From Escherichia coli (lineage in GTDB: Bacteria > Pseudomonadota > Gammaproteobacteria > Enterobacterales > Enterobacteriaceae): 64,000 nt of DNA. The translations under genes and the position numbers were made by a program. Numbering within the stretch: position 1 is the first letter of the stretch; each line of letters opens with the position of its first letter. The notes under the pieces are model-generated. The model saw nothing but the letters and a program-made list of their open reading frames with translations, ran no database searches and was not told the origin of the DNA. The stretch lies in assembly GCF_003790525.1 (NCBI RefSeq), contig NZ_CP033635.1; one strand, written 5' to 3'. This document shows positions 551 to 23,587 of the stretch, one piece after another.

Positions 551-3500
551 ATGAAAAAAAATTCTTTAAATGTGATTTTGGATACTGTTTTCTCGGCGAA
601 AAGCATCAATGGTGAGAAATCTCATTCTTTTATATCGTATAAATTAGTTAAAGCTGTAGAAAATTTAAGTGGATATGACTTGGATCTTTTCCTCAATCGT
701 GCGATAAACCATCCTAACTTCCCTAGCAATATGGATTTTTCCTTACGAACAGTTTTTACAATTGAACAATCTAACACTATTGAATTTAAAAATTTCATTT
801 CAGAATTGGTGTGGTACAAGCATATTTTCATACGATATAAAAAACACCTTAATGATATATTATCGGCAAAGGCAAGACTTGAGAAGTTAGTTCTTTTCGC
901 AACAGGTAGTGAATGTATAAAATATTTAGATGAAATAGAAAGCTCTTATGGAGTTAGTTTTTGGAGCATTGATGCTCGTCTCTTAATAAATAAAGTTTTG
1001 CTTAACGAAAGCAATGGGTTATATGTTAAATCAATTCTATCTAAAACCCACTATAAACTTACAGAGTTTATGTTACAGCAGCTATTATTTAAGCATCAAG
1101 TACATAACTTTGATGATTTTTCAAAGAACCTTATAAAAATACTAGATGATATGCGCACCACTCAAGATAATGGGTATGCTAGAAATTTAGCTGATGGTAT
1201 TTCATCCTTTTTAATACCTTTAGAGTTTGATAAAAATATAGATCTCAAAAATAGAACCTTAGCACCATTTACCAACCTTCCTTTAATAGATCAATTTATC
1301 ATATTCCAGAGAACTATAAGCGATTTACAACTTCATGGAAATGGTTTAAGAAATAGCGAGTTAAGCTTAATTGCAGAAATTAACAGCTTTATTAAAAATA
1401 ACTATCTCAACAATATTTTAGATGGAAGAGAGCGTAATATAGAGAATATTGATGAACACTATAAAAGTGTTATTCGACGTTATACTATAGGTGATTATAC
1501 TGGGTGTATTTCAGAAATAAATTCAGTTCGAACGCAGAAGACAATTTTGCCATTAATTGAAATATATGCAAAATCCCATGTGTATCTTGATAAGAAAATT
1601 TCAGACTCATGCATATTCAATAAATTAACAAACTGGCTTATAGCAATTATAAAATGCGACAGACGCGCTGGAAAATACATCGATGAATTTGAACTTTTAG
1701 CATCTAAGATATATTTCAATTCAAATTCATCCTCTCTATTCTTCACATTATATAATTTAATAAGTGATAACCATAATAAATTAAACATATCTCGTATAAA
1801 TCTAACCAAAAATGGTTCCTTTGTAACATCCCTTCATTTGAATATAACAATCAAGGAACTATGGACTGAACTTGGAATAAAAGAGAATGAGATACCAAAA
1901 TATCGATTATTTAAATTCAAAGACCTAGCAAATCTATCCTTTGATGAAATCAAAAAACACTACGAAGTATACAATGATAATGTAATAATTCGCTCTGAAT
2001 ATTTAAAAGATTATACTAACTTTTTATTAGAAAATGAAAAGTATGAATTATGCATCCAATTTATAGCTGAAAACTGCATCGGCAACCCCGCAAATTATTA
2101 CTACTTCCCAATCCGAAAAATAATTGATTTTGTAAAAGACAATATTTTTGACTATGCAAGCGTGGCCTTATCTATATTGATAGATATTTTTGTCAAAAGC
2201 ACATCAAACACTTCAAATGAGCTTCTTCTCGAAAGTTATGAGAGTTTAGTAGATATTTCAAATATTAATAGGCCATCTACCCATTATTGCTCTAAGCAAT
2301 TAACTCCATTAGAGCACTATTTCCTTAAGTTTATCTGTATACCTTCCGTGATGGATTCAGACCCTTCATTCACAGGCACGGACGACTTGAAGAAGGAAAG
2401 AATTGCTATTATAGATCTATTATTAAAAGAACACGATGATGCAGATTTATTGAAAGAGAAAGACGAAATTATAGATGAAATATCATTCGAAGAAATAAAA
2501 ACAAAATATGAGACAGGAAAAATATTTGTTGATATAGAAAATTTAAAACGGGCAAAGCTTGAAAGATACAGATATTATTTTGATGCACTTAAGGATTCGC
2601 TTATTCTCGGACTAGAACCACCTGAAGACTTTGCTTTAATTACAGACGATGGGAATATCACAGCCATTCCATCTGGCGATACAAACTCTATAATCCATGA
2701 ACTTCTAAAAGAACTAATCTCCGATTTTGTTAAAAATGAAAATTACGGTCTTGATAAATATTTGAGTGCAGATATACGGCATGGTGTTTTTGAAAATCAA
2801 CTCAGATCAAGTGCTGAAAAATCGCAATTAATAACTGATATGGATGGTACTGGACAGTATTCGAAAAGCAATTTAATTATTGAGACATATCCATTAATTA
2901 ACCCTATTATAAATAACGAAATAGGGACAGCAATAGCTGATTTCTCTTATCACTTTGACATTGAATTGGCTAAAGCCAATTCCTGGTTCAATGTCAAGAC
3001 AATGCTCATAAGTGAATCACAGCAAGGTATGATTGATTTCCTCATTTCTGTTGATATGTTTAATTCATTTAAAGCAGCAGTTTCAAATCAAGCATCTTTT
3101 GAGAAGTTTTTTGACGCTTGTATTAACTTCATGTGGGAAAGAACGTTCAGATGTTTGAATGATATTAAAGAGCGATTGCATTACGAATTTAAGAGGAATA
3201 TTTTAGATTTAATTGCCACTCTTAGGCATCAAATTGATATCTATAGAAGACGTAGTTCCATGAGAGAAATCCAGGAGAAAATTGACCTCTTGGCCGAAAG
3301 CATTAATAAAGAAATTGCAACAGTCTGCGATTGGTTAAATGTACTTGAGTATAACGAGGAGAAAATATATAAAATATCATCCGTGATGCAGGCATGTAGG
3401 AAAACTTTTTTTAATATACACCATTGTTCTGATGATGCTATCGTTTTTGATTCAATGTATCATGATGATGAACCAAAATTATCTTATAAAGAAGCCAAGC

Positions 3501-3826
3501 CTCTAATCACATCAATAATAACAGCGTTAAACAATGCTATGGCCTATGGTAATAAAAAAATCTTTATCAGTATTAAGCCTGAAGAAAAGTCATGGAAAAT
3601 AACCATCAGAAATTTGATAATTGAGACAAAGAACAGAACTACCAACCAAATTTTACAAGAGATTGATGATAAAATAAAACGAGGGGATAATAGTCTAAAT
3701 ATAAAAGAAGGCGGAGCTGGAATATATAAAATATATGATTTATTATGTTCATTACCGCAAAGATTTAATGTGAATCATTGCATCCAAAATAACGAATTCA
3801 TTTTAAATATTGAGATAAAGAAATGA
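551..3826 (+). CDS. Large sensor protein with C-terminal histidine-kinase-like ATPase core (Detocs DtcA-like); N-terminal ~850 aa of unknown, probably helical-repeat, sensing function
   Basis: 1091-aa ORF, strongly AT-rich. C-terminus carries an N-box-like motif (ITALNNAMAYGN, compare EnvZ NAARYGNG) and a G2-like GGAGIY motif; a candidate H-box (ERLHYEFKRNILDL) lies ~100 aa upstream. Stop overlaps next start (ATGA at 3823-3826). Confidence 0.6.
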   Translation: MKKNSLNVILDTVFSAKSINGEKSHSFISYKLVKAVENLSGYDLDLFLNRAINHPNFPSNMDFSLRTVFTIEQSNTIEFKNFISELVWYKHIFIRYKKHLNDILSAKARLEKLVLFATGSECIKYLDEIESSYGVSFWSIDARLLINKVLLNESNGLYVKSILSKTHYKLTEFMLQQLLFKHQVHNFDDFSKNLIKILDDMRTTQDNGYARNLADGISSFLIPLEFDKNIDLKNRTLAPFTNLPLIDQFIIFQRTISDLQLHGNGLRNSELSLIAEINSFIKNNYLNNILDGRERNIENIDEHYKSVIRRYTIGDYTGCISEINSVRTQKTILPLIEIYAKSHVYLDKKISDSCIFNKLTNWLIAIIKCDRRAGKYIDEFELLASKIYFNSNSSSLFFTLYNLISDNHNKLNISRINLTKNGSFVTSLHLNITIKELWTELGIKENEIPKYRLFKFKDLANLSFDEIKKHYEVYNDNVIIRSEYLKDYTNFLLENEKYELCIQFIAENCIGNPANYYYFPIRKIIDFVKDNIFDYASVALSILIDIFVKSTSNTSNELLLESYESLVDISNINRPSTHYCSKQLTPLEHYFLKFICIPSVMDSDPSFTGTDDLKKERIAIIDLLLKEHDDADLLKEKDEIIDEISFEEIKTKYETGKIFVDIENLKRAKLERYRYYFDALKDSLILGLEPPEDFALITDDGNITAIPSGDTNSIIHELLKELISDFVKNENYGLDKYLSADIRHGVFENQLRSSAEKSQLITDMDGTGQYSKSNLIIETYPLINPIINNEIGTAIADFSYHFDIELAKANSWFNVKTMLISESQQGMIDFLISVDMFNSFKAAVSNQASFEKFFDACINFMWERTFRCLNDIKERLHYEFKRNILDLIATLRHQIDIYRRRSSMREIQEKIDLLAESINKEIATVCDWLNVLEYNEEKIYKISSVMQACRKTFFNIHHCSDDAIVFDSMYHDDEPKLSYKEAKPLITSIITALNNAMAYGNKKIFISIKPEEKSWKITIRNLIIETKNRTTNQILQEIDDKIKRGDNSLNIKEGGAGIYKIYDLLCSLPQRFNVNHCIQNNEFILNIEIKK

Positions 3827-4272
3827 AAATTCTTCTTGTTGAGGATATTGAATATAAGCGTGATAAGGTGATCGGTTTACTAGAGTCTATTTCTGCCGAT
3901 GTATCAGTCGATGTAGCTAAATCTTATGTTTCGGCAGTAAATTCCGCAACCAGTAAAACTTATGATCTTATAATATTAGATATGAGCCTTCCCACTTACG
4001 ATAAGGGGCCTAATGAAAATGGAGGTCGCTTCAGAGTGTACGGAGGGAAAGATATTATTCGCAAGTTAATGAGAGGAAAAGAGCATCCAGTAGTTGTGGT
4101 TTTAACACAACATACAACTTTTGGTGAAATTGGTGAGCAAAAAAATACTGACACTCTATCACAAGAGTTGAATGCTTTAATGGGATCAAAATTTATAGGT
4201 ATTGTAAAATATGACTCAACTAAACCTCAATGGAAAGATGAAATAAAAAAAGTCGTACAGGATTTGTTATGA
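3823..4272 (+). CDS. Stand-alone receiver (REC) domain protein (Detocs DtcB-like)
   Basis: 149 aa; KILLVEDIE N-terminal acidic pocket, YDLIILDMSLP with candidate phospho-acceptor Asp53, downstream VVVLT. Start and stop are coupled by ATGA overlaps to both neighbours. Confidence 0.6.
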   Translation: MKILLVEDIEYKRDKVIGLLESISADVSVDVAKSYVSAVNSATSKTYDLIILDMSLPTYDKGPNENGGRFRVYGGKDIIRKLMRGKEHPVVVVLTQHTTFGEIGEQKNTDTLSQELNALMGSKFIGIVKYDSTKPQWKDEIKKVVQDLL

Positions 4273-5432
4273 TTAAAATATTAATAGTTGATGACAATAA
4301 ATCTAGAATTGAAAAGCTAAAATCTAGCTTAACTGAACTCATCACAAAAAACATGATAAGGATTGATGAGAAATATACAAGTGACGCCGCAAAAATCGCG
4401 CTCAAGTTAAATCAATATGATTATTTAATTCTTGATGTCTTTTTACCTAAAAAAGATAACTATAGCCCAGATGAAAGAAATGGATTAGGTCTTTTAAAAC
4501 AAATAAATTCAGATTCTAAATTTTACTCTCCAAAAAAAATAGTTGGCATAACTGCATATCTGAATGATATATCCAGATATGAATCCGAATTCAGAGAATA
4601 TGCTTCAATTATATTCGAGGCTCGACGTAATGATACTGGATGGCTTGAATCACTCAAAAAAATCATTGAAAAGGATGTTGAATCTCAAGTAAGTTATAAT
4701 CTCAATGAAAAAGATAGTGTTTTAATAACAGTACACGGTATAAGAACCTACGCACCTTGGCAAAATACCATAGAAGAAAAAATAACCAATATATCAAATA
4801 AATTTAACTATATAAAATTCAATTATGGTTTTCTAAATATTCTTTGTTTTTTATTCCCTCCGACTAGACATCTATTTGCAAGAAAAATAATCCAAGACAT
4901 ACGAATTACAGTGGAATCAAATAAGAATAAAAGAATTTATATTATTTGTCATAGTTTTGGTACCTACCTTGTATATTGTGCCTTAAGTAAACTGACACAT
5001 ACGGATGCAAAAATTGAATGTTTAATTTTTTCTGGTAGCGTATTAAAACGTACTACCTCATTGAAAACATTAAAGCAACATTGTAATGCAATAATAAATG
5101 ACTGTGCTGTAAGTGATTATATTTTATTACTATGTAAAATGTTAGTCATTGGCTTGGGCGATGCAGGCAGAAAAGGGTTTATTGAGCCAAATGATGGTGT
5201 TTTCATTAACCGCTATTTTAAAGGAGGACATTCAACTTACTTCGAAGATAAAGATTTCATAGAAGTGAACTGGCTTCCTTTAATTTTTGACAATAAAAAT
5301 ATCGCGTCACGAGATGAAAGAAAAAATCATATTTTTTCCGATGTCACCAATGCTTTGCAAAATATAATTGAATATTTAAAAATACCAATATGGTTATTTT
5401 TTTCTTTTTTATTGATAGCACTGGTATTATAA
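4269..5432 (+). CDS. Receiver (REC) domain fused to predicted alpha/beta serine hydrolase (lipase/esterase-like) with C-terminal transmembrane anchor (Detocs DtcC-like effector, non-PNP)
   Basis: 387 aa; N-terminal REC (KILIVDDN, YDYLILDVFLP Asp56). C-terminal part has VLITVHGIRT (oxyanion-hole-like HG), nucleophile elbow ICHSFG (Ser229, nt 4953-4955), later GGHSTYF (candidate catalytic His) and a hydrophobic tail IPIWLFFSFLLIALVL. Confidence 0.6.
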   Translation: MIKILIVDDNKSRIEKLKSSLTELITKNMIRIDEKYTSDAAKIALKLNQYDYLILDVFLPKKDNYSPDERNGLGLLKQINSDSKFYSPKKIVGITAYLNDISRYESEFREYASIIFEARRNDTGWLESLKKIIEKDVESQVSYNLNEKDSVLITVHGIRTYAPWQNTIEEKITNISNKFNYIKFNYGFLNILCFLFPPTRHLFARKIIQDIRITVESNKNKRIYIICHSFGTYLVYCALSKLTHTDAKIECLIFSGSVLKRTTSLKTLKQHCNAIINDCAVSDYILLLCKMLVIGLGDAGRKGFIEPNDGVFINRYFKGGHSTYFEDKDFIEVNWLPLIFDNKNIASRDERKNHIFSDVTNALQNIIEYLKIPIWLFFSFLLIALVL

Positions 5433-5458
5433 TATCACTGCACATTAAAAATCATATT

Positions 5459-5484
5459 GGAGCTTCCCTCATAAAGCTCCAATA
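5459..5484 (+). terminator. Candidate stem-loop downstream of the three-gene operon
   Basis: GGAGCTT-ccctcat-AAGCTCC inverted repeat 27 nt after the stop at 5432; no clear T-run. Confidence 0.3.
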
Positions 5485-5911
5485 TAAAACACCATCATTT
5501 CAATAGTACCTGCAGCTAATTAAAACTAGTCAACCGAAAAAATTAATCACTTTAAACTTTAGTATGCACTTATACTTTCTTAATAATAGAAAAACACTTA
5601 CAAATAAATTAATCATGTCAATCTCCGTAACTACAACCTCGGAAAGTATGTAAACAGGAATCATTACTGAAAAAAACACGATTTCAGCAGAATTCTAGAA
5701 ATATCCTGTGCTGCTGCCGATACCAACTTTCGTATATACTACCCTTCACGTTCCTTCTCGTTTTTATAAAACTATTCATTTATAACTATCAATAGGCATC
5801 ATAACCAATGTAAGTGTAAGTACTGGTGAACGAGTGTCAATGGAGTTAAAAGTATCACTTCATCCTGCTAAATATAAGTTATCCTACGTTTTAATATACT
5901 AGAACTCAAAA

Positions 5912-6877
5912 TTAGAATGGTTTGTTAATATTAATAGATTTACCATTGATATCTTTTGACACCTTAAAAAAATCTATACCTTTTATCCACTGACATAACT
6001 GTTGTAGTGTTTCCATTGCCTGTTCTAACTCATTTTTTTCAATTCTAACGCCCCCATGATGGCTACAGGAATTTAATAATTCCTGAGCTAGAGTGATGTC
6101 ATTCTTCAGCTTATTAGGCAGACCGAGAAAATTAATCACCCTCGACAAACTCCCAAGCATTAACTTTTGATAGTCTTCTTCAAATTCCTTTTCAGCCCTA
6201 ATATTTACTAACATCAAAACATACTCAAGATAACGCCGTGCTGTATTTCCCTTTTCTTGTAACGCATCTCTATCATACTCTTTAATATCACTCAATTCCT
6301 GTAGTAGAAAATCAAACTTAGCTATTGCCAAGTTAAGATTGATGTTATGCATTAGCAATTCGGATGCATGATTGCTAACAGGTACACGATTTGGTGGACG
6401 TATCATTATAGCCGTCGTGTAACAATTTATATTTGGTATCTGTATAAATTCCTCACCGGAACGCGTAACACGTTGAACTTCTACCATATAGTGGCCAAAT
6501 TTATCAATCTCATATGACCGACAACGAGCAGAATATAATTTATTTAGCTTTTTCCTGTCTTGATAATATGATTTTATTAATACAAAAAATGCTCTTTCGT
6601 GCTCAATAATTAAAATAGTCTCTATTGAAGCATGGTACAACCATCCGTTATTCCATGTTAATTCAAGCTGTCTATTTCCATCTTTAAAATCAATTTTAGT
6701 TATACGATCCCAACTTCCTCTATCAATAAAATCGACAATATTGCGCCCAAATCCTTGATAGTTATTTTTAACAATGTGCAATAGTACTGCCTTTATTTTA
6801 TCCCAATCATGAATTTCTTTTTCATATTCACCATTTAATATATTCGTTAAATCACTGTGAAAATTTTCATATGTCAT
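5912..6877 (-). CDS. Hypothetical protein (island cargo, no recognisable motifs)
   Basis: 321-aa ORF with ATG at 6877, AT-rich like the neighbouring operon, directly downstream of the integrase on the same strand. Confidence 0.55.
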   Translation of the reverse strand: MTYENFHSDLTNILNGEYEKEIHDWDKIKAVLLHIVKNNYQGFGRNIVDFIDRGSWDRITKIDFKDGNRQLELTWNNGWLYHASIETILIIEHERAFFVLIKSYYQDRKKLNKLYSARCRSYEIDKFGHYMVEVQRVTRSGEEFIQIPNINCYTTAIMIRPPNRVPVSNHASELLMHNINLNLAIAKFDFLLQELSDIKEYDRDALQEKGNTARRYLEYVLMLVNIRAEKEFEEDYQKLMLGSLSRVINFLGLPNKLKNDITLAQELLNSCSHHGGVRIEKNELEQAMETLQQLCQWIKGIDFFKVSKDINGKSININKPF

Positions 6878-6978
6878 AAGTATCTCTTTTTAGATAAAAT
6901 TGGATTTCGACAAGTAGACGTTGATAACAACAAGACTGGTTAGATAATTTAATCATTGATGCAACGTTTAGCGTTGAA

Positions 6979-8163
6979 TCAATTGACATCATTACCAATT
7001 CTTCCAATGCAATCAGCATACCACTGCATCATCTCCCTCCGCCCTTCCAGATACAAAGCATGGTTGTACGTCCCACGAATCGCATTCTTATCGACATGCG
7101 CAAGCTGGGTTTCAATCCATGCCGTATTGAACCCTTCCTCGTGCAAAATCGTACTCATCGTGTGACGGAAACCATGCCCCGTTACCTTCCCCGTATACCC
7201 AATCCGTTTGAATACCTGATTCATACTCGCTTCACTCATCGTCTTGCGGGGATCATTTCGCCCTGGGAATACCAGTGGATATTGCCCAGATATCACCTTG
7301 AGTTGTTGTACGATTTCCAGCGCTTGGGTAGATAGGGGGACAAGGTGAGGCCGTTTCATCTTCATACGCTCTGCAGGTATTTCCCACACTGCTTTTTCAA
7401 GATCAAACTCACTCCAGAAAGCACCTCGTAGCTCGCCAGTACGAACTCCTGTAAGGATCAGCAGACGAGCGGCAAGAACAACTAACGGGCTTCCTGTGTA
7501 GCCTGCGAGAGCTTTAAAGAAGTCTGGTAACTCCTCAACAGTAAGGAAGGGATAATGCTTCGATTCATGCCCTGACATTGCGCTGGTTAGATCCGCTGCA
7601 GGATTGTATTCCGCACGACCGGTAACGATGGCGTAACGAAAGACTTCACTGCAACGCTGGCGAACCTTCTTGGCCTTCTCTGTCGCGCCACGGCTTTCCA
7701 TTCGACGTAGCACATTCAGCAGAACCAAAGGCTTGATGTCATTCACCGGCAGTTGGCCAATATAAGGGAAAATATCTTTATTGAAGGCTTCGATAATGTC
7801 GGAGGCATAACCTTCTGACCACCGGCTCACCTTCGTTCCGTGCCATTCAAGTGCCACAGCCTGAAACGTATTATTGAGCTGCACATCGCGAACCAACTTT
7901 TCTTCTTTCTTGGCAAACGATGGGTCGATACCTTCGGCCAGCTTTTTCTTGGCTTCATCACGCAGTGCCCTCGCTTGTGCAAGGGACACTGCCGGATAGA
8001 CACCAAAAGCCATACGTTTCTCTTTTCCATTGAAGCGATATTTCATCCGCCAGTATCGAGAACCAGAAGGAACAACTTCAAGATACAAGCCTGCACCATC
8101 TGCTAGCTTGTAGGCTTTCTCTCTGGGTTTAGCAGCATCTACCTGTCGAGCATTAAGCTTCAT
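6979..8163 (-). CDS. Site-specific tyrosine integrase, P4-like family
   Basis: N-terminus MKLNARQVDAAKPREKAYKLADGAGLYLEVVPSGSRYWRMKYRFNGKEKRMAFGVYP is typical of P4-type integrases; C-terminus has GHGFRHT and LAHVDKN...RGTYNH catalytic-region motifs. Start placed at ATG 8163 (AGGGAG 9 nt upstream); lies 164 bp from the tRNA 3' end. Confidence 0.9.
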   Translation of the reverse strand: MKLNARQVDAAKPREKAYKLADGAGLYLEVVPSGSRYWRMKYRFNGKEKRMAFGVYPAVSLAQARALRDEAKKKLAEGIDPSFAKKEEKLVRDVQLNNTFQAVALEWHGTKVSRWSEGYASDIIEAFNKDIFPYIGQLPVNDIKPLVLLNVLRRMESRGATEKAKKVRQRCSEVFRYAIVTGRAEYNPAADLTSAMSGHESKHYPFLTVEELPDFFKALAGYTGSPLVVLAARLLILTGVRTGELRGAFWSEFDLEKAVWEIPAERMKMKRPHLVPLSTQALEIVQQLKVISGQYPLVFPGRNDPRKTMSEASMNQVFKRIGYTGKVTGHGFRHTMSTILHEEGFNTAWIETQLAHVDKNAIRGTYNHALYLEGRREMMQWYADCIGRIGNDVN

Positions 8164-8326
8164 TGGGGGCATCTCCCTGGACCGAACACAGAATGCCCCC
8201 ACTTATGCCCCCAACTGCGACTTGATTTCGGTTGAGTCCAGTTGATAACAGGAGATAAGATACGGGCCAGAAACCGCAGTATACGGGCTTTTAGTTGATT
8301 TCGGTAGACTTGGGAAGAGTTTGAAA

Positions 8327-8402
8327 TGGTGCCGATAATAGGAGTCGAACCTACGACCTTCGCATTACGAATGCGCTGCTCTACCAACTGAGCTATATCG
8401 GC
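8327..8402 (-). tRNA. thrW: tRNA-Thr (anticodon CGU)
   Basis: 76-nt minus-strand sequence GCCGATATAGCTCAGTTGGTAGAGCAGCGCATTCGTAATGCGAAGGTCGTAGGTTCGACTCCTATTATCGGCACCA folds as a cloverleaf with anticodon loop TTCGTAA and CCA end. Confidence 0.9.
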
Positions 8403-11173: not shown

Positions 11174-12229
11174 ATGAAAAAGAGCACTCTGGCATTAGTG
11201 GTGATGGGCATTGTGGCATCGGCATCCGTACAGGCCGCAGAAATATATAACAAAGACGGTAATAAACTGGATATCTATGGCAAAGTTAAAGCCATGCATT
11301 ATATGAGCGATAATGACAGTAAAGATGGCGACCAAAGTTATATCCGTTTTGGTTTTAAAGGCGAAACACAAATTAACGATCAACTGACGGGTTATGGTCG
11401 GTGGGAAGCAGAGTTTGCCGGTAATAAAGCGGAGAGTGATACTGCACAGCAAAAAACGCGTCTCGCTTTTGCCGGGTTGAAATATAAAGATTTGGGTTCT
11501 TTCGATTATGGTCGTAACCTGGGCGCGCTGTATGACGTGGAAGCCTGGACCGATATGTTCCCGGAATTTGGTGGCGACTCCTCCGCACAGACCGACAACT
11601 TTATGACCAAACGTGCCAGCGGTCTGGCGACGTATAGGAACACCGACTTCTTCGGCGTTATCGATGGTCTGAACTTAACCCTGCAATATCAAGGGAAAAA
11701 CGAAAACCGCGATGTTAAAAAGCAAAACGGCGATGGCTTCGGCACATCATTGACATATGACTTTGGTGGCAGCGATTTCGCCATCAGTGGAGCCTATACC
11801 AACTCTGATCGCACCAACGAGCAGAACCTGCAAAGCCGTGGCACAGGCAAGCGTGCAGAAGCATGGGCAACAGGTCTGAAATACGATGCCAATAATATTT
11901 ATCTGGCAACTTTCTATTCTGAAACACGCAAAATGACGCCAATAACTGGCGGCTTTGCCAATAAGACACAGAACTTTGAAGCGGTCGCCCAATACCAGTT
12001 TGACTTTGGTCTGCGTCCGTCGCTGGGTTATGTCTTATCGAAAGGGAAAGATATTGAAGGCATCGGTGATGAAGATCTGGTCAATTATATCGATGTTGGT
12101 GCTACGTATTATTTCAACAAAAATATGTCGGCATTTGTTGATTATAAAATAAACCAACTGGATAGCGATAATAAGCTGAACATCAATAATGATGATATTG
12201 TCGCGGTTGGCATGACCTATCAGTTTTAA
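11174..12229 (+). CDS. phoE: Phosphate-starvation outer membrane porin E
   Basis: [21 protein letters not shown] signal peptide followed by porin sequence ending ...VAVGMTYQF; 351 aa from the second ATG. Confidence 0.95.
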
Positions 12230-12239
12230 TGGATATTGC

Positions 12240-12262
12240 CGGATGTGATGCATCCGGCACAT
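12240..12262. terminator. Stem-loop between convergent phoE and crl
   Basis: GCCGGATG-tgat-GCATCCGGC inverted repeat immediately after the phoE stop. Confidence 0.4.
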
Positions 12263-12267
12263 TTCAC

Positions 12268-12726
<459 letters not shown>

Positions 12727-13971
12727 TTAACACAATCGTTTTTCGATCCAGTCGGTGATTTCCTGAAGACCTTTGTCAAAATTCCGATACACCGGGTTAA
12801 ATGGGATCTCTAACAATTTACCGTCAGCAGATGATGAGGTGATTAAGCGTGAGTCCTCTTCCGGGCTGAACGGATCGTTCTTCCAGTAGCCTGATAACAT
12901 TGGCGTTGGGCAGCGACGTCCCAGCAATCCTTGCACTTTTAATGAATAGCGATTCAGCTCCACGCGCAACGCTTCGTCGGAAGCATCATGCATCCCCAAA
13001 CGGCTCGCCAGAACGTCAAGATACATTTCCGGCACCTGTTGCTGGCACTTAAAATCACTCAACAGGGTATGAACTACCGGACCAAGACAGGCAACCGCTT
13101 TCAGACGCGGCGATTCAAGGTATGCCAGACGCACGGCAACGTTAGCGCCGAAACGGAAACCAAAGGCCGCGACGCGAGTGTGATCTACCCACGGTACGTT
13201 AGGCAGCGCCTTTAAGACGTGCTGATGCAACAGGCTGGAGTCCTGGGTGAGCTTCCATTTTGAAGAAAAGCCCACCGACGGCATATCAATAGTCAGCATC
13301 GCAATGCCGCGCGGCGCAAAATAACGTTCATACAGGCTGTAATAGTCCGTCTGCATCGCATCCAGACCACCACACATTAATACTGTCGGGAACGGGCCAT
13401 CACCTTTCGGCATATGCAAAAAGCCGGTGATGGGCGCACCGCCGGGTACGGTAAACTCCATCTGCCGCATCGTGCCCGGCAGACGCTGAGCGGCCTCTTC
13501 ATAGGCGCGGTTTGACAAAGCCTGCGCTTGCTCGGCCAGGTCATCTCCTTTCAGATGAGGATAGGCAGCAATGTTGTACAACGTAGCCGCATGCAGCCAG
13601 TGTCGACCGCTGAGTTGCGGATCTTCTTCCGCACAGGCTTTTTGTTGCCACACCATCGCCTGGGTAGCCCACTCATAAATCCAGTTGCCGCCGCGGTAGC
13701 CAATCACCGTATCGTATAAATCATCGTCGGTACGTTCGGCATCGCTCATCACAATACGCGCCTGGACGTCGAGGATTTCACGTGGGTCAATGCCGCGCCA
13801 GATCCACATCAGACGGTTAATCATGCGATACCAGTGAGGGATGGTTTTACCATCAAGGGCCGACTGCACAGGCGGTTGTGCGCCGTGATTAAAGCGGCGG
13901 ACTAGCGTCGAGGTTTCAGGATGTTTAAAGCGGGGTTTGAACAGGGTTTCGCTCAGGTTTGCCTGTGTCAT
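12727..13971 (-). CDS. frsA: Esterase FrsA (fermentation/respiration switch protein)
   Basis: 414-aa translation [30 protein letters not shown]... matches FrsA. Confidence 0.95.
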
Positions 13972-14012
13972 GGATGCAGCCTCCAGAATACTTACTGGAA
14001 ACTATTGTAACC

Positions 14013-14047
14013 CGCCTGAAGTTAAAAAGAACAACGCCCGGCAGTGC
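14013..14047 (-). terminator. Rho-independent terminator downstream of gpt
   Basis: Minus strand reads CAACGCC-loop-GGCGTTG followed by TTCTTTTT just after the gpt stop. Confidence 0.4.
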
Positions 14048-14062
14048 CAGGCGTTGAAAAGA

Positions 14063-14521
14063 TTAGCGACCGGAGATTGGCGGGACGAATACGACGCCCA
14101 TATCCCACGGCTGTTCAATCCAGGTATCTTGCGGGATATCAACAACATAGTCATCAACCAGCGGACGACCAGCCGGTTTTGCGAAGATGGTGACAAAGTG
14201 CGCTTTTGGATACATTTCACGAATCGCAACCGCAGTACCACCGGTATCCACCAGGTCATCAATAACGATGAAGCCTTCGCCATCGCCTTCTGCGCGTTTC
14301 AGCACTTTAAGCTCGCGCTGGTTGTCGTGATCGTAGCTGGAAATACAAACGGTATCGACATGACGAATACCCAGTTCACGCGCCAGTAACGCACCCGGTA
14401 CCAGACCGCCACGGCTTACGGCAATAATGCCTTTCCATTGTTCAGAAGGCATCAGTCGGCTTGCGAGTTTACGTGCATGGATCTGCAACATGTCCCAGGT
14501 GACGATGTATTTTTCGCTCAT
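14063..14521 (-). CDS. gpt: Xanthine-guanine phosphoribosyltransferase
   Basis: 152-aa translation [50 protein letters not shown]... matches Gpt. Confidence 0.95.
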
Positions 14522-14781
14522 GTGAAGTGTCCCAGCCTGTTTATCTACGGCTTAAAAAGTGTTCGAGGGGAAAATAGGTTGCGCGAGATTATAGAGATCT
14601 GGCGCACTAAAAACCAGTATTTCACATGAGTCCGCGTCTTTTTACGCACTGCCTCTCCCTGACGCGGGATAAAGTGGTATTCTCAAACATATCTCGCAAG
14701 CCTGTCTTGTGTTGACAACATTTTCTGCTAACCCTGTGACCTGCAATACTGTTTTGCGGGTGATCGACAAGGAGACTTAAC

Positions 14782-16239
14782 GTGTCTGAACTGTCTCAAT
14801 TATCTCCACAGCCGCTGTGGGATATTTTTGCCAAAATCTGTTCTATTCCTCACCCGTCCTATCATGAAGAGCAACTCGCTGAATACATTGTTGGTTGGGC
14901 AAAAGAGAAAGGTTTCCATGTCGAACGCGATCAGGTGGGTAATATCCTGATTCGTAAACCTGCCACCGCAGGTATGGAAAATCGTAAACCGGTCGTCTTG
15001 CAGGCCCACCTCGATATGGTGCCGCAGAAAAATAACGACACCGTGCATGACTTCACGAAAGATCCTATCCAGCCTTATATTGATGGCGAATGGGTTAAAG
15101 CGCGCGGCACCACGCTGGGTGCGGATAACGGCATTGGTATGGCCTCTGCACTGGCGGTTCTGGCTGACGAAAACGTGGTTCACGGCCCGCTGGAAGTGCT
15201 GCTGACCATGACCGAAGAAGCCGGTATGGACGGTGCTTTTGGCTTACAGAGCAACTGGTTGCAGGCTGATATTCTGATTAACACCGACTCCGAAGAAGAA
15301 GGTGAAATCTACATGGGTTGTGCGGGGGGTATCGACTTCACCTCCAACCTGCATTTAGATCGTGAAGCGGTTCCAGCTGGTTTTGAAACCTTCAAGTTAA
15401 CCTTAAAAGGTCTGAAAGGCGGTCACTCCGGCGGTGAAATCCACGTTGGCCTGGGTAATGCCAACAAACTGCTGGTGCGCTTCCTGGCGGGTCATGCGGA
15501 GGAGCTGGACCTGCGCCTTATCGATTTCAACGGTGGCACACTGCGTAACGCCATCCCGCGTGAAGCCTTTGCGACGATTGCTGTCGCAGCTGATAAAGTC
15601 GACGCCCTGAAATCTCTGGTGAATACCTATCAGGAGATCCTGAAAAACGAACTGGCAGAAAAAGAGAAGAATCTGGCATTGCTGCTGGACTCTGTTGCGA
15701 ACGATAAAGCTGCCCTGATTGCGAAATCTCGCGATACCTTTATTCGTCTGCTGAACGCCACCCCGAACGGTGTGATCCGCAACTCCGACGTGGCAAAAGG
15801 TGTGGTCGAAACCTCCCTGAACGTCGGTGTGGTGACCATGACTGACAATAACGTAGAAATTCACTGCCTGATCCGTTCTCTGATCGACAGCGGTAAAGAC
15901 TACGTGGTGAGCATGCTGGATTCGCTGGGTAAACTGGCTGGCGCGAAAACCGAAGCGAAAGGCGCATATCCTGGCTGGCAGCCGGACGCTAATTCTCCGG
16001 TGATGCATCTGGTACGTGAAACCTATCAGCGTCTGTTCAACAAGACGCCGAACATCCAGATTATCCACGCGGGCCTGGAATGTGGTCTGTTCAAAAAACC
16101 GTATCCGGAAATGGACATGGTTTCTATCGGGCCAACAATCACCGGTCCACACTCTCCGGATGAGCAAGTTCACATCGAAAGCGTAGGCCATTACTGGACA
16201 CTGCTGACTGAACTGCTGAAAGAAATTCCGGCGAAGTAA
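14782..16239 (+). CDS. pepD: Cytosol nonspecific dipeptidase (aminoacyl-histidine dipeptidase)
   Basis: 485-aa ORF with GTG start and AGGAGA RBS; translation MSELSQLSPQPLWDIFAKICSIPHPSYHEEQ... matches PepD. Confidence 0.95.
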   Translation: MSELSQLSPQPLWDIFAKICSIPHPSYHEEQLAEYIVGWAKEKGFHVERDQVGNILIRKPATAGMENRKPVVLQAHLDMVPQKNNDTVHDFTKDPIQPYIDGEWVKARGTTLGADNGIGMASALAVLADENVVHGPLEVLLTMTEEAGMDGAFGLQSNWLQADILINTDSEEEGEIYMGCAGGIDFTSNLHLDREAVPAGFETFKLTLKGLKGGHSGGEIHVGLGNANKLLVRFLAGHAEELDLRLIDFNGGTLRNAIPREAFATIAVAADKVDALKSLVNTYQEILKNELAEKEKNLALLLDSVANDKAALIAKSRDTFIRLLNATPNGVIRNSDVAKGVVETSLNVGVVTMTDNNVEIHCLIRSLIDSGKDYVVSMLDSLGKLAGAKTEAKGAYPGWQPDANSPVMHLVRETYQRLFNKTPNIQIIHAGLECGLFKKPYPEMDMVSIGPTITGPHSPDEQVHIESVGHYWTLLTELLKEIPAK

Positions 16240-16249
16240 TTATTTGATT

Positions 16250-16287
16250 TGCTGCCGGATGGCGTTTAATCGCCTTCCGGCAGTTTC
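16250..16287. terminator. Stem-loop between convergent pepD and prfH
   Basis: CTGCCGGATGGCG-ttta-ATCGCCTTCCGGCAG inverted repeat followed by TTTCATCC. Confidence 0.4.
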
Positions 16288-16295
16288 ATCCTTCA

Positions 16296-16910
16296 TTATC
16301 CTTCGATAAAAGCCATCCCTGTGAACGTTCGTCGCGGGTTGCCACGTTCAATCTGGTGATGGAACATTCGCCGCTGCGATTTCAGCGCCGCGCTATTTTC
16401 CTGTTGCTGTTGTTCCAGCTTCCAGGCAATCAGTAATCGCGCCAGCCGTTTGTTAGCATGCTGACTGCGCTCTGACTGAACCTTCACGCTAATACCGGAT
16501 GCCAGATGCGTGGCGCGTACCGCCGAGTCGGTTTTATTGACATGTTGACCGCCCGGCCCCGACGAACGCAGCGTCTCATAACGGATCGCGTCGGATTGTT
16601 CCTGCTCATCAGCGGTAAAACGCCCAATGCCCAGAAACCAGTTTTTGCGCCCATGATGAGGCCGATACGGACTCGGACAAATCCACTGGATAGTGCCACA
16701 CCAGCTTTCGCTTAGAGCCCATGCGTTATCGCCATCCAGAGAAATCAGCGCCGAACGCATTGTGTCAGGATAGCGCCCCGCTTCTGTTTCCAGCACCGTT
16801 ATCGCGACGTCTTGTCGGGTAGCTTCTTTAATCAACCTGTCCAGCGCCTTTTTCACTGCCAGGCAACATTCTTCCGGCCCCTGAGCTGAGGAGAGTTGTA
16901 GCAAGATCAT
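16296..16910 (-). CDS. prfH: Peptide chain release factor homolog PrfH (full length)
   Basis: Translation from [21 protein letters not shown]... contains the release-factor GGQ motif ([16 protein letters not shown]); ATG overlaps the upstream rtcB-like stop (ATGA). Confidence 0.85.
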
Positions 16911-18058
16911 CCTTTTTTCCCTCCACTGTTTTTGAGCGTTAGCACCGGACGCAGTCGCGCGACAGGAATAATTAACCCAGCCTGCACCAGACATTGCACC
17001 ACGCTTTCAGCCGATTTATAAGCTTGTGGCGCTTCTTCAAAGATGAGTTGTTTATCGCGACAAATTACCCGGCTGCCAAGTTCAGTACGTGAGAGCTGCG
17101 TCGCTGTGTATTTCGCTGCCAGACGCCCTTTACACTCGGTGCGCCCCCATTTACGCCCAGCCCCATGCGCCAGCGAATGCAATGTTTCCTCACTCCTGAC
17201 GGGCTGAACCAGCCAGGAGTAATCACCGCGTGAACCGGGAATAATCACCAGACCGTTGTCATCCGGTGTGGCACCTTTACGATGCAACCAGCCCTGTTGA
17301 TCACCGATTCGACACGCGCTAACAAAGTTATGCGCCACATCCAGAACCGAATTACCGTTGGCCTTAATCTGTTGCATTATGCGCAAAGCGATCAGCTGGC
17401 GATTAATACGCGCAAACGCCAGCGCATCATCATGTTCCACAATATAACTTAGCGCGTCGTCACTGCCTTCAGGCAAACCATGATGCGAAAACGAGGCAAT
17501 ATGCCGCTGTAAAATAGACTGGCCCAAACCCCGCGAGCCGCTATGAACCAGCAGTTGCAGATGCTGCGCATCCAGACCTGTCAGTGCAAACAGTTCAGCG
17601 TCGATAATTTCATCAACTTGTTGCAGTTCTGCGAAGTGGTTTCCGCCACCGATGGAACCCAGCGAGCTGCGCCACGGATGCTGTGCTAACGCTGACGGCA
17701 GGTTTTCCTCCAGCCAGCTTTCTTCAGCAACGTCATCCAGCGCAGATAATCGCTTTTCAAACTTATCGGCGTTGTATTTGCGCGCGAAAATATCTGTTTG
17801 CCATAGCGCCATACCGCAGCCGATATCATTGCCGACCAGTGCCGGGTAAAAACGGCCTACGGAGAAGAACGCTGCGCCAATCGGATAGCCGCGTCCGGGG
17901 TGTAAATCTGGCATCCCTACTACGCGTTGCATGTCGGGTAAATTTGCCGTGGTGTGTAATTGTTGGATCGCTGAACTCTCGATCCACAGGTCATCAGATG
18001 CGATGGTAAGTACCGCATCAGATAAGGGACGAATATATTTGCCCATGTACCATTCCAT
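16907..18058 (-). CDS. RtcB-family RNA ligase homolog (ykfJ/rtcB2-type), full length
   Basis: 383-aa ORF translationally coupled to prfH; conserved RtcB-like His/Cys/Gly-rich segments (e.g. [19 protein letters not shown]). Start may be at the first or second ATG. Confidence 0.8.
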
Positions 18059-18236
18059 TTATGAATAAAAATCAGGAAATGGCAGACGAATCCAGGGCAA
18101 GAAAAAAAGAATTAATCCTGGAAAGGTCTGCAAAGAGTCATTGATAAAGGATTTGTCATGATTTACCTCCTTGCAGTTTGTGGAATAAGAAAACGCGCAC
18201 ATACTAGGCGGGCGTTATTTTCTTTGCAAGCTGGAT

Positions 18237-18689
18237 TTAATGTTGCGGTTTATATCGCATATAAAAATTAGTAAACCACGCTCCCCGGCATTCAACGCGC
18301 TGCTGCTTAACTGTCTGAAAACCATAACGTTCAAAAAAGGGTTTTGCGGTTATGCTGGCGTCCACCGTAAGTTCGGATTCAGACTTAATCAAAGGTTTTA
18401 ACAAAGCGCTGGCAACCCCGCGTCGGGTGTATTCAGGTTCAACAAATAACATATCGATATAATGTCCAATGCGGGTAATAAAACCAACCGGTTGTGCATT
18501 AATAACTGCAACCCGCACTTGTGATTTCGCGAGTTTCTCCTTCCAGCGAGATTCGTCAATCTGCGCCCAGGCGGCAATTTGTTGTGGTGAATAATGCTGA
18601 CTGGCGGTCATCGTAACCGCTCTAAGGAAAATAGCGCATAGTTGCTGAAAATCGCCAGGCTGATAGTTTCTTATTTGTATGTTATTCAT
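18237..18689 (-). CDS. yafP: GNAT-family N-acetyltransferase YafP
   Basis: 150-aa translation MNNIQIRNYQPGDFQQLCAIFLRAV... matches YafP of the dinB operon. Confidence 0.85.
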   Translation of the reverse strand: MNNIQIRNYQPGDFQQLCAIFLRAVTMTASQHYSPQQIAAWAQIDESRWKEKLAKSQVRVAVINAQPVGFITRIGHYIDMLFVEPEYTRRGVASALLKPLIKSESELTVDASITAKPFFERYGFQTVKQQRVECRGAWFTNFYMRYKPQH

Positions 18690-18698
18690 AATATAAAT

Positions 18699-19098
18699 TC
18701 AAAAACGCATGCGAAACGCTTCTGCCATTTTCCCAATTTTATGCATTTGGTTGTTATCTCGAGCCAGTTTATGAGGTTCAGGTTTCAGAATGGCAATGAG
18801 CAACCATGCTTGCTCATCAAACGCACCCTGACAATATACCAAATGCGCTTCGTCATTCGTTCTGCTGAATTGGCGCAACTGTGGCGGAAATGGATTATTC
18901 ACATTTGCCAGATGAATATGAGCAACTCGCTCAAATTTGATTAATGGCCAGGTAAACGAGTCGTCGTAGGAGTGCATCGCGACCAAATATATCTGGCAAA
19001 ACACCGTCACGCTTATAGGAAATAAAATCCGCCGTTAACGCATCAAGTTCCTCTGCTGTAAGTTGCAGGCGAATAAGTTTTGTTTTGAATACCCGCAT
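18699..19098 (-). pseudogene. yafO: yafO toxin gene interrupted by a single-base frameshift
   Basis: ATG at 19098, coupled to the yafN stop, encodes MRVFKTKLIRLQLTAEELDALTADFISYKRDGVLPDIFGRDAL, then stops after 13 more codons. The rest of YafO (YDDSFTWPLIKFERVAH...FRMRF) continues in the +1 frame; the frames meet at a CTCC run near 18969-18972. Confidence 0.6.
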
Positions 19099-19100
19099 CC

Positions 19101-19394
19101 TTATTCCTTAAAGTCATTGAAATCATCATCCGTCATATCATTAAGATATTGTTCAGCGCGGCGTGTAATTTCCTCTAATCTTGCGGCACTCGGACGGAAG
19201 CGCGCCTTAACCAGTTTTTTCTCCTCTTGTTCAGCAAGCATGTCCATTAACGCTTCAAATGCGCTGGCACTTAAGAGATATCCTGCGGGGCGATTATTAG
19301 AAAGAACCGCAACCGGTTGATCAATAAAGTATTTAGCTGGGTTTTTACGTAACTCAGTGATATTGACCGATTTTTCAGCGAGAATTCGATGCAT
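19101..19394 (-). CDS. yafN: Antitoxin YafN
   Basis: 97-aa translation MHRILAEKSVNITELRKNPAKYFIDQPVAVLSNNRPAGYLLSASAFEAL... matches YafN. Confidence 0.85.
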   Translation of the reverse strand: MHRILAEKSVNITELRKNPAKYFIDQPVAVLSNNRPAGYLLSASAFEALMDMLAEQEEKKLVKARFRPSAARLEEITRRAEQYLNDMTDDDFNDFKE

Positions 19395-19445
19395 ACAGTG
19401 ATCCCCTCATAATAATGCACATCAGAATATACATAATAGTATACA

Positions 19446-20501
19446 TCATAATCCCAGCACCAGTTGTCTTTCCATTTGAGGGTCAAGTAACGTCACATGC
19501 AGCCCCACCAGACGCACACCGCGCCCGCCGCGACGTTCATCCCAGGTTTTACGCGCGGTGGCGATTAGATCAGCTTTATTCAGCCGCGGCCAGACGTGCT
19601 CCTGAGTGGTTTGCTGAAAATCATCAAACTTTAATTTCACCCCCTGGCGAGCAATCAGTAAATCAGGTTTTACCTTTGCCAGACGGCGTTCAAGTTCAGG
19701 ATACAGCCGCTCGATAATCGCTTCACATTCAGACCAGTGATGAATATCTTCCGCCATCGTGCGTTCCACGCCGACGGATTTTCGCAACCGTTCACTGTTA
19801 ACGTCGCGCTCGTCAATCCCCTGACTACGCTCCCACAAAATGCGGCCAAATTTGCCAAAACGTTTGAGCAGAGTCACCAGATCACACTTTTGCACATCAC
19901 CGCAGGTCCGCAGCCCCATCGCTTCCAGTTTTGCCGCCGAGACTTTGCCGACGCCGGGAATTTTTGCCAGCGGTAAGGTTTGCAGAAATGCCGGAACTTC
20001 TGCCGGAGTAATCACAAACTGACCGTTGGGTTTATTCATGTCGGAAGCAATTTTGGCGAGAAACTTTACCGGCGCAACGCCCGCAGATGCCGTCAGTTGC
20101 AGCTCGTTAAAGATCGTCTGACGGATTTCCTTGGCGATGAGGGTCGCAGAACCGTGGCAATGCACACTATCGGTGACGTCGAGATAGGCTTCATCCAGTG
20201 ATAACGGTTCAATGCGCGAGGTATAGCGCGAGAAAATTTCGCGGATATGATTTGAGGCTTCTTTGTAGGCGTCAAAGCGCCCCGGAAGCAAGGTGAGATG
20301 TGGGCATAATTTGAGTGCCATCCCTGTCGGCATAGCGCTGCGTACGCCAAATTTACGCGCGGGATAATTGGCGGTGCTGATCACCCCCCGACGTTCGCGG
20401 CTGCCGCCAATAGCAATAGGGATATCGCGCAGGGCGGGATTGTCGCGCATCTCCACCGCTGCGAAAAAGCAGTCCATATCCACATGAATGATTTTACGCA
20501 T
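19446..20501 (-). CDS. dinB: DNA polymerase IV
   Basis: 351-aa translation [34 protein letters not shown]... matches DinB. Confidence 0.95.
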
Positions 20502-20517
20502 TGCTCACCTCTCAACA

Positions 20518-20533
20518 CTGGTAAAGTATACAG
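20518..20533. promoter_or_regulatory. LexA (SOS) box upstream of dinB
   Basis: CTGGTAAAGTATACAG fits CTG-N10-CAG about 20 nt upstream of the dinB start. Confidence 0.7.
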
Positions 20534-20571
20534 TGATTTCAGGGTTTGAGAAATGCGTAAAGATTCAGCAT

Positions 20572-21495
20572 TTAACGCGTTCGCTGTGAAAGCACCTGCT
20601 GCTTATCCAGCTTTTGCACCAGCGGCTGCACCACTTTATCCCCATGCTGACCAAAGTATTGATACAGCGTATCGGACGCGCTTTTAGTCAGCACCATAAT
20701 CTCAATGCGCCGGTTGCCCGCGCTTTGCGGATTTTTCGCGTCCAGCAGCATCTGGTCCGCCATTGCGCTCACCTGCATCACTTTATCTTCCGGCATTCCT
20801 GCCTCTTCCAGCACCCGACGAGCCGAAAGCGCGCGGTCACCCGAAAGGTTCCAGTTGTTGTAGATATTGTTTTTGTAGGCCATCGCATCGGTATGCCCGG
20901 TAATAATAATTTTGTTATCGAGCGAGTCGAACACTGGCGCGAGCTCCACCAGCAGCGTTTTAAAGAACGGCATAATCTGCGCGCTGCCACGTTCGAACAT
21001 ATTGCGATTCTGGTCGTCTTTAATCAGCACGCGTAATCCCTGCGGGACAATCTCCATCTCCAGATTCGCTTCCATATGCGCATCACGGGCAATGGTGTTG
21101 ATACTGGTTGCCAGCTCACCAAGCTCGGTGGCGGATTTCTTCTTCAGCAGCGCCGTTTTCTCGTTGACGTCGCGCGCTTTTTTCTCCGTCTCTTCCGGCA
21201 CTGCCACGGTGGCAGGTTTTGACGGATGAGACGGGCTGATTTTATTTAACGGCGACAGCCCGCCACCGTTAAAAATCGACTGCCCGTGTAGCGCGGCGAT
21301 AATGCTTTCACGCTCGGATTTACTGACGCTGTTGACAATCCACAGCGTCATAAACAGCGCCATCATTGCCAAAGTAAAATCGGCGAACGCCACCTTCCAC
21401 GCCCCGCCGTGGTGCCCGGCATGATTCTTTTTGATCTGCCGCCGGACGATGGTGGTTTTTGCCCCACGCTCGCGGCGGTTGCCCGTCTTTCTCAT
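20572..21495 (-). CDS. lafU: Lateral flagellar motor stator protein (MotB homolog), full length
   Basis: Translation from MRKTGNRRERGAKTTIVRRQ... has a single transmembrane segment and an OmpA-like C-terminal domain; ATG overlaps the lafT stop. Confidence 0.9.
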   Translation of the reverse strand: MRKTGNRRERGAKTTIVRRQIKKNHAGHHGGAWKVAFADFTLAMMALFMTLWIVNSVSKSERESIIAALHGQSIFNGGGLSPLNKISPSHPSKPATVAVPEETEKKARDVNEKTALLKKKSATELGELATSINTIARDAHMEANLEMEIVPQGLRVLIKDDQNRNMFERGSAQIMPFFKTLLVELAPVFDSLDNKIIITGHTDAMAYKNNIYNNWNLSGDRALSARRVLEEAGMPEDKVMQVSAMADQMLLDAKNPQSAGNRRIEIMVLTKSASDTLYQYFGQHGDKVVQPLVQKLDKQQVLSQRTR

Positions 21496-21497
21496 GC

Positions 21498-22361: not shown

Positions 22362-22373
22362 GATTTCTTCACT

Positions 22374-23093: not shown

Positions 23094-23112
23094 GTTTATA
23101 TCCGCCTGGTGA

Positions 23113-23580
23113 TTACTGGAAGACCACTTTTTTCACCAGCAAATCCTTATACGGTGCGCTCATTTTGCGACGCTGAAGATCTTTCTTTAGCGCATCAGAA
23201 ATCAGTTTGCGGATGGCAGATATTTTCATGCCCCGCAAATCTTCAAATTTCATTTCCGTCAGGCATTCAACCGCAATACTTTGATACAATGGCTCCTGAT
23301 GTTTTATTTTTTCCGCTTCTTTGTCACTGGCAACCACCATCACTAATTCCGCCGACAAATAATGGTCCGCGCCGTTGTTGTCATGCAGCGTGACAATGGT
23401 TTCCGGCAGCGTCACAAACACGCTTTTGCTTTCATCCAGGGTTTCCACCGCTTCCGTCCGCGCAACGGCAGTCGGTTTTCCTTTTCCGGCATAATGATGC
23501 CAGACACCCCATCCAGCTCCAGCGCCGACCACCAACGCCAGAACGGCGCTGACCACGCCCGCCACCACGATTTTCTTCAT
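23113..23580 (-). CDS. lafF: Flagellar basal-body-associated protein (FliL homolog)
   Basis: 155 aa with N-terminal transmembrane segment and FliL-like sequence. Confidence 0.8.
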   Translation of the reverse strand: MKKIVVAGVVSAVLALVVGAGAGWGVWHHYAGKGKPTAVARTEAVETLDESKSVFVTLPETIVTLHDNNGADHYLSAELVMVVASDKEAEKIKHQEPLYQSIAVECLTEMKFEDLRGMKISAIRKLISDALKKDLQRRKMSAPYKDLLVKKVVFQ

Positions 23581-23587
23581 ATTGCCT

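Follow-up and report, generated by a model that had tools for sequence, protein, structure and literature searches.

We analysed a 64,000-nucleotide stretch of Escherichia coli DNA (assembly GCF_003790525.1, contig NZ_CP033635.1; hereafter the window), with the open reading frame (ORF) at positions 5912-6877 of its minus strand as the subject. This 321-codon ORF is a real gene under purifying selection. Its product belongs to a family of uncharacterised two-domain proteins, in which a novel N-terminal alpha+beta domain is predicted to be joined to an HEPN-fold, DUF4145-like domain. The gene is a stand-alone unit, horizontally mobile and independent of its neighbouring genes. Our best reading, held with about even confidence, is a self-contained single-gene conflict or immunity module (anti-phage or anti-plasmid) that integrative elements carry as cargo. 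The gene and the relevant parts of its product are located in the window as follows:

5912..6877, minus strand: coding sequence (CDS) of 321 amino acids (aa) with an ATG start, a single-gene unit (ORF list and translation; RefSeq WP_000220589.1)
6383..6877, minus strand: N-terminal alpha+beta domain, aa 1-165, three helices and about ten strands (predicted structure)
5930..6373, minus strand: C-terminal all-helical HEPN-fold domain, aa 169-316, DUF4145-like (predicted structure)
6707..6736, minus strand: acidic motif V-D-F-I-D-x-G-x-W-D, aa 48-57 (column counts, translation check)
6212..6238, minus strand: helix motif R214-R-Y-L-E218-x3-M222, with R214 and E218 invariant family-wide, also in alignment A6
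6050..6073, minus strand: motif N269-S-C-S272-H273-H-G-G, with N, S and H invariant or nearly so (column counts)

An earlier note on this DNA had described a clean, AT-rich 321-aa ORF, convergent with a neighbouring operon and co-directional with an integrase gene, and translation, base composition and strands bear this description out. The translation is free of internal stops. Given the ORF's own base composition the stop probability per codon is 0.087, so that 321 stop-free codons would arise by chance with a probability of about 2e-13, and about 3e-8 such ORFs are expected across the whole window. The guanine plus cytosine (GC) content of the ORF is 32.6%, compared to 30.5% for the operon (551-5432), 49.4% for the integrase gene and 54.6% for proBA. 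In E. coli SMS-3-5 the same CDS is annotated in RefSeq as a hypothetical protein (WP_000220589.1). Homologues share the start methionine, their alignment contains 45 invariant columns, and Nei-Gojobori pairwise ratios of non-synonymous to synonymous substitution rates (dN/dS) lie between 0.06 and 0.13 for pairs with unsaturated dS.

Structure prediction, which the earlier note had proposed, was run with AlphaFold2 on an alignment of 30 sequences and gave a model with two domains (predicted local distance difference test score, pLDDT, 87; predicted template modelling score, pTM, 0.82), the C-terminal one with an HEPN fold. In the predicted model this domain has the four-helix up-and-down arrangement of HEPN proteins. 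The N-terminal domain is a putative sensor or regulatory domain. Foldseek searches against AFDB50 revealed about 20 full-length structural neighbours with template modelling (TM) scores of 0.65-0.80, 14-23% identity and expectation values (E) of 1e-14 to 1e-21. They come from Sporocytophaga, Paenibacillus, Synechocystis (Sll1401), Uabimicrobium, Clostridium, Blautia, Phocaeicola, Thiothrix and Bacillus, and thereby from the phyla Bacteroidota, Bacillota, Cyanobacteria, Planctomycetota and Proteobacteria. Several of these neighbours are named 'DUF4145 domain-containing protein' or 'HEPN domain-containing protein', the names being those of UniProt. The HEPN/DUF4145 assignment is a model-based one that draws on the predicted structure, the neighbour names and the motif register, and it does not reach significance at the sequence level.

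Searches of sequence libraries gave no family. In Pfam the protein had no credible match, only a chance match to Tudor_2 (E 0.2), and NCBIfam returned none. A weak match to phrog_622 in PHROGs was not reproduced across relatives and was discarded as noise. PDB sequences searched with the profiles A1 and A2 and with the HEPN-only profile A6 gave chance matches only. Profile searches directed toward canonical DUF4145 proteins returned mostly the close clade when started from alignment A4, and eight fragments only when started from the C-terminal-domain alignment A6. The statement of the earlier note that no family could be assigned therefore holds at the sequence level (Pfam, NCBIfam, PADLOC), but not at the level of structure, where the C-terminal HEPN fold can be recognised.

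Conservation was scored over 118 distinct family members. Conserved residues fall mainly into three motifs, two on helices of the HEPN domain and an acidic one in the N-terminal domain. In the latter, D49 and D57 (V-D-F-x-D-x2-N-W-D) are conserved family-wide, D49 being present in 40/40 and 45/50 and D57 in 40/40 and 48/50 sequences, and a P-K pair is conserved at the domain boundary. In the HEPN domain a single helix carries R214, E218 and K222 at i, i+4 and i+8; Y236, G242-x-L244 and N269-x2-S272-H273-D274-x-G276 follow. The N269-H273 motif sits in the register of the HEPN/DUF4145 motif 'R-N-x3-H', but L268 replaces the arginine (Arg).

A word-indexed search detected 36 clusters of full-length homologues with 31-76% identity, all named hypothetical; the named hosts are Salmonella, Buttiauxella, Aeromonas, Pectobacterium, Serratia, Klebsiella, Enterobacter, Proteus, Citrobacter, Providencia and Pantoea. 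When 1.84 billion cluster representatives were searched with a profile (E <= 1e-3), the family grew to at least 125 clusters at 50% identity, mostly of about 320 aa and matched over both domains. Some members are longer. N-terminally extended ones of about 470-520 aa (P0068, P0070, P0075, P0080 and others) showed weak DUF3775 matches in 5/40 cases (best E 7e-7), and the additional stretch of about 250 aa in C-terminally extended members of about 570-610 aa (P0047, P0089, P0125, P0166) contains no recognisable domain. The GC content of the family gene is 29-35% in every host, including a Serratia locus of 62% GC; this host-independent low GC is the signature of a horizontally circulating cassette. 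Plasmids almost lack the family, with one fragmented copy among 72,556. In the literature we found no paper naming the family, its RefSeq accessions or Sll1401; the PADLOC v2 catalogue dates from 2023.

To describe the surroundings of the gene we examined 14 genomic contexts, the island of the window at thrW and 13 others:

Context 1, thrW island: P4-type integrase and PDC-M60
Context 2, E. coli O157:H7: WP_000205213.1 (318 aa, 45% identical) in a P4-like satellite at the same tRNA-Thr
Context 3, Providencia: a P4-type integrase at mutS lies one gene away; the island also encodes a ResIII/RE_endonuc protein
Context 4, Salmonella Rep3 plasmid: RelA_SpoT, ParDE, TacAT and AAA_13 genes
Context 5, Citrobacter conjugative element: flanked by an N6_N4 methyltransferase and ArdC, near a type I restriction-modification system and AAA_15
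Context 6, Buttiauxella: surrounded by resolvases, a cI-like repressor and an HNH protein
Context 7, metagenome contig: adjoining a Schlafen/AlbA_2 ATPase and an S24 peptidase
Context 8, contig: resolvase present
Context 9, metagenome contig: Patatin, ParE-like, MNT/HepT and NACHT genes
Context 10, E. coli (L016): adjoining a resolvase fragment and a 1522-aa protein of no known function
Contexts 11-13, Serratia, Enterobacter and Proteus: plain chromosomal islets
Context 14, Bacteroidales-type 571-aa variant: within a capsule locus

Nine of these 14 contexts are mobile-element, defence or toxin-antitoxin settings. No neighbouring gene recurs across the 14. When the gene and its flanks were compared by blastn with all fetched loci, similarity was confined to the CDS; in the two closest genera it ran on downstream for no more than about 75 bp.

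The second context shows the homologue at a different place within its element. The O157:H7 satellite spans 13.3 kb at thrW (11610-24947 of locus L031; strain PV15-279, NZ_AP018488.1) and is bounded by 24-nt direct repeats at 11610 and 24924. Its gene order is integrase, ABC-three-component genes, ogr/delta, psu, sid, icd-like gene and primase, and then the homologue. WP_000205213.1 is the first gene inside the distal attachment (att) repeat, at the end opposite to the integrase, while the ABC-three-component genes occupy the integrase-proximal hotspot. The WP_000205213.1 branch, a paralogous one that the satellite carries as cargo, is present in 307/5426 complete E. coli genomes, mainly of O157:H7.

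The window itself corresponds to E. coli SMS-3-5 at 99.9% identity, where the island lies at tRNA-Thr(CGU), that is thrW (window 8327-8402), adjoining proA. In an Rfam scan the tRNA alone was above threshold; a 'Plastid-ycf2' match at 8329-8402 on the plus strand, antisense to the tRNA-Thr, reached 28.8 bits, below the gathering threshold of 65.7, and was rejected as a chance match. The integrase gene at 6979-8202 on the minus strand is of P4 type (NF007246) and co-directional with the ORF. Its start is ambiguous, since the longest ORF begins with GTG and encodes 407 aa, whereas RefSeq gives 394 aa (1185 nt). Beyond the left end of the window the SMS-3-5 island continues with IS3, antirestriction, DUF905, JAB/RadC-like and DUF987 genes, a set typical of CP4-type cryptic elements. 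The two non-coding features next to the gene and the operon are:

6878..6978, minus strand: spacer of 101 bp between the integrase stop and the ORF start (sequence read directly)
5452..5487, no strand assigned: terminator-like hairpin with a 15-pair stem and a T-run (2 terminator-like sites against 0.7 expected)

A weak Shine-Dalgarno-like sequence (AAAGAGA) is located 6 nt ahead of the ATG of the ORF. A simple scan of the spacer 6878-6978 found no minus-strand sigma-70-like site, and a promoter scan of the region counted 9 sites against 8.9 expected, which is not above shuffled sequences. A sharp step in GC content lies at 6877-6979, from about 31-33% in ORF, spacer and operon to 49% in the integrase gene; therefore cargo and integration module are of different origins and the island is a mosaic.

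The operon at 551-5432 on the plus strand consists of three genes and is convergent with the ORF. It corresponds to the PADLOC candidate system PDC-M60 A/B/C (E 4.5e-55, 2e-35 and 1e-22) and its products are a protein of 1091 aa, a stand-alone receiver of 149 aa and a receiver of 387 aa fused to an alpha/beta hydrolase, as RefSeq names it. We take this layout to resemble that of Detocs, with sensor kinase, buffer receiver and receiver-effector. The 479 bp between ORF and operon (5433-5911) are AT-rich and contain no ORF longer than 49 aa. The hairpin at 5452-5487 lies 20 nt past the stop of the last operon gene and 425 nt past the stop of the ORF, and could serve as a shared terminator of both convergent units.

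We infer the defence role from the fold of the protein and the neighbourhood of its gene. The analogy in mechanism is based on the precedents of single-gene DUF4145/HEPN immunity that experiments have established, namely RAZR, BxaP and Ishtar. By this analogy, the N-terminal domain would keep the protein inactive until it recognises a cue of the invader, which may be a phage or plasmid protein or a nucleic acid. The HEPN domains might then pair or oligomerise, and the paired domains would form an active site from N269, S272 and H273 together with R214 and E218 of the neighbouring helix. RNA cleavage at this site would arrest growth or block replication of the invader. RNA cleavage as the effector chemistry is a tentative assignment, which we hold with less confidence than the immunity module as such because the catalytic Arg is missing. 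Doubtful, though conceivable, is the most far-reaching version, in which the proteins would make up a new family of single-gene immune sensors across five phyla, with the D...D-motif domain controlling an HEPN-like nuclease and an Arg/Glu pair from a neighbouring helix replacing the Rx4-6H Arg. The HEPN fold would then hold a new catalytic arrangement, and the N-terminal domain would be a new one for recognising triggers.

A number of observations weigh against the immunity reading. The canonical Arg of the Rx4-6H motif is absent, positions 265-268 being Q/E/L/L in the ORF protein and mostly hydrophobic in its relatives. No Arg is conserved at 265-268 among the 118 members, and the invariant R214 is located on a different helix, so that RNase activity cannot be taken for granted. 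In the clade of enterobacterial sequences to which the ORF belongs, K222 is replaced by M or I and D274 by H or Y in 28/30 sequences (in the window, aa 222 corresponds to nt 6212-6214 and aa 274 to nt 6056-6058), compared to K-D or K-E at these two positions in 83/88 sequences of the wider family. This replacement is a single clade-level swap next to the putative active site; it points to a coupling of the two positions and to a remodelling of the site in the enterobacterial clade. That the conserved residues cluster in one site at all is something we infer only. Pfam DUF4145 (PF13643) did not match the ORF protein even at E <= 10, nor any of 89 relatives scanned singly at E <= 0.1, and no PADLOC model matched the ORF protein or nine relatives. 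An hhalign comparison with the HEPN domain of Ishtar was not significant (3.9% probability). In five of the 14 contexts, namely the islets of Serratia, Enterobacter and Proteus, the capsule locus of Bacteroidales type and one short contig, hallmarks of defence or of mobile elements are missing, and our literature search found no experiment on any family member.

The main rival explanation, which we regard as rather unlikely, takes the protein to be HEPN-like but non-catalytic, and to act as a regulator, as an adaptor that binds RNA or nucleotides, or as a maintenance or addiction factor of the element instead of an immune RNase. The family-wide loss of the Rx4-6H Arg, the replacement of K222 and D274 in the clade of the ORF, the several plain chromosomal islets among the contexts and the HEPN survey (PMC3710099), which places R-less families and MtlR in the DUF4145-like group, would all fit such a protein. 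However, N269, S272, H273, R214 and E218 stay invariant at 17-25% identity, as is typical of a catalytic or ligand-binding site. The protein also has no DNA-binding domain, its gene adjoins no conserved target operon, and the patchy, AT-rich and mobile-element-linked distribution fits conflict genes better than regulators. If the protein were non-catalytic, the gene would be an ordinary hypothetical island gene.

Three further explanations are disfavoured by the evidence. The earlier note had left open whether it is a single-gene system or an accessory of the neighbouring operon. Its separate, single-gene nature stands, given the 13 other contexts and the homology confined to the CDS, whereas the accessory role does not, since the co-occurrence with the operon goes back to one clonal event. 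A fourth component of the PDC-M60 (Detocs-like) phosphorelay is accordingly very improbable and largely refuted. The gene does adjoin the operon in the same AT-rich cargo block (about 31% GC), and the two co-occur perfectly in the same 16/5426 E. coli genomes. The islands in question, however, share at least 99.9% identity, and we therefore count them as one event. ORF and operon run convergently, with 479 bp between them that contain the terminator-like hairpin, a histidine-kinase or receiver operon is absent from all 13 other contexts, and the PADLOC models of PDC-M60 span three genes only. An anti-defence function, also considered in the earlier note, or a phage-derived counter-defence gene would agree with the cargo position in integrative elements and satellites, with one remote C-terminal match (Psychrobacillus phage PVJ1) and with six provirus-type contigs in IMG/VR that contain family members. 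It is nevertheless quite improbable, since phage genomes hardly ever carry the family: the PVJ1 match, weak and partial, is the only one in 50,697. The IMG/VR contigs are integrated elements in isolate genomes, four of the six having been placed as the island or the P4-like satellite. One of them (L025, IMGVR_UViG_2740892118_000012, 46.8 kb), catalogued as a viral (provirus) contig, is identical to the island, and the other five matches are about 45% identical, three of them fitting the O157:H7 satellite locus. A protein of 321 aa with an HEPN fold would also be atypical for anti-defence proteins. Lastly, island housekeeping, as an excisionase, recombination directionality factor or integrase regulator, is disfavoured to the point of being barely credible. 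The gene lies directly downstream of the integrase gene, co-directional and 101 bp apart; yet homology to an excisionase or regulator, which the earlier note had named as the finding that would speak against a defence role, was looked for in Pfam and NCBIfam and not found. No helix-turn-helix (HTH), Xis or other DNA-binding domain was detected in these two libraries, and a 321-aa HEPN-fold protein is unlike known excisionases. Many homologues lie far from any integrase, that of O157:H7 at the opposite end of its satellite, and the change from 49% to 33% GC at the gene boundary marks an origin different from that of the integrase.

Should the gene be a true immune module, it would represent a new architecture among the single-gene DUF4145/HEPN defences (RAZR, Ishtar, BxaP), adding an unrecognised sensor domain and an HEPN site without the textbook arginine. 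It would then shed light on the gating of HEPN nucleases and on the extent to which their active site may drift. There is also a practical gap, as Pfam, NCBIfam and PADLOC v2 all miss the family, although 307/5426 complete E. coli genomes contain one of its branches.

Comparison with known systems places the protein close to several HEPN defences. RAZR (PD-T7-4) combines a zinc ribbon with an HEPN domain, assembles on portal or ring proteins of phages and cuts single-stranded RNA, its catalytic R146 being located eight residues before H154 (PMC13017515). In place of the N-terminal Cys4 zinc ribbon of RAZR the ORF protein has its 165-aa alpha+beta domain, and R146 is without a counterpart, position 265 being Q and hydrophobic in relatives. 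The PADLOC model of PD-T7-4 does not match the ORF protein. BxaP, a BREX-associated DUF4145 protein of abortive phage defence (PMC10799925), is likewise a single protein with a DUF4145/HEPN-type domain. Its DUF4145 domain, however, is N-terminal, followed by a HEAT-like domain and detectable by HHpred, whereas the ORF has no association with BREX.

Ishtar (ist1/ist2) is an anti-plasmid system that clears RP4 and has been reported in P4 satellites (bioRxiv 10.64898/2026.07.06.735840). Like the family described here it is monogenic, combines an HEPN domain with a beta-rich domain that has three helices and is of function not known, and is patchily distributed, with reports from P4 satellites and beside defence genes. 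In contrast to the ORF protein, where the HEPN domain is C-terminal, that of Ishtar is N-terminal; Ishtar proteins are of 170-260 aa and keep the canonical R-N-x2-E-H, while the ORF protein has 321 aa and lacks the Arg. An hhalign alignment sets NelSHDSG on the RNxlEH of Ishtar and NTxRRxxE on its N-x-K-R helix, with a probability of only 3.9%. This register is consistent with a relationship but falls short of proof. Identity with Ishtar was rejected on the reversed domain order and the hhalign probabilities of 3.9% and 0.6%, and neither WP_000220589 nor WP_000205213 is contained in the Ishtar homologue Table S3.

Other HEPN proteins differ more. HepT of HEPN-MNT toxin-antitoxin pairs (type II/VII) is accompanied by an MNT antitoxin, which does not adjoin the ORF, the flanks of 101 bp and 479 bp being non-coding, and Csm6/Csx1 carry a CARF domain, which the ORF protein lacks. 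The HEPN domains of HepT and Csm6/Csx1 show 3-14% identity to the ORF protein, which is without the Arg of Rx4-6H. R-less HEPN families (c2405, MtlR) sit in the DUF4145-like group of the HEPN survey; the c2405 family keeps the His without the Arg and is defined by an N-terminal AbiTii domain, and MtlR-type proteins are regulators (PMC3710099). Compared by the descriptions of the survey, these families resemble ours in the conserved His, the lack of a conserved Arg and the N-terminal alpha+beta domain; in difference from c2405, no AbiTii domain was found in the ORF protein with Pfam. The family is built like the RAZR/Ishtar/BxaP class but is a member of none of these systems. It is fairly widespread and, as far as our literature search shows, without a name, and it combines a new N-terminal domain with a DUF4145-like HEPN fold that lacks the Arg.

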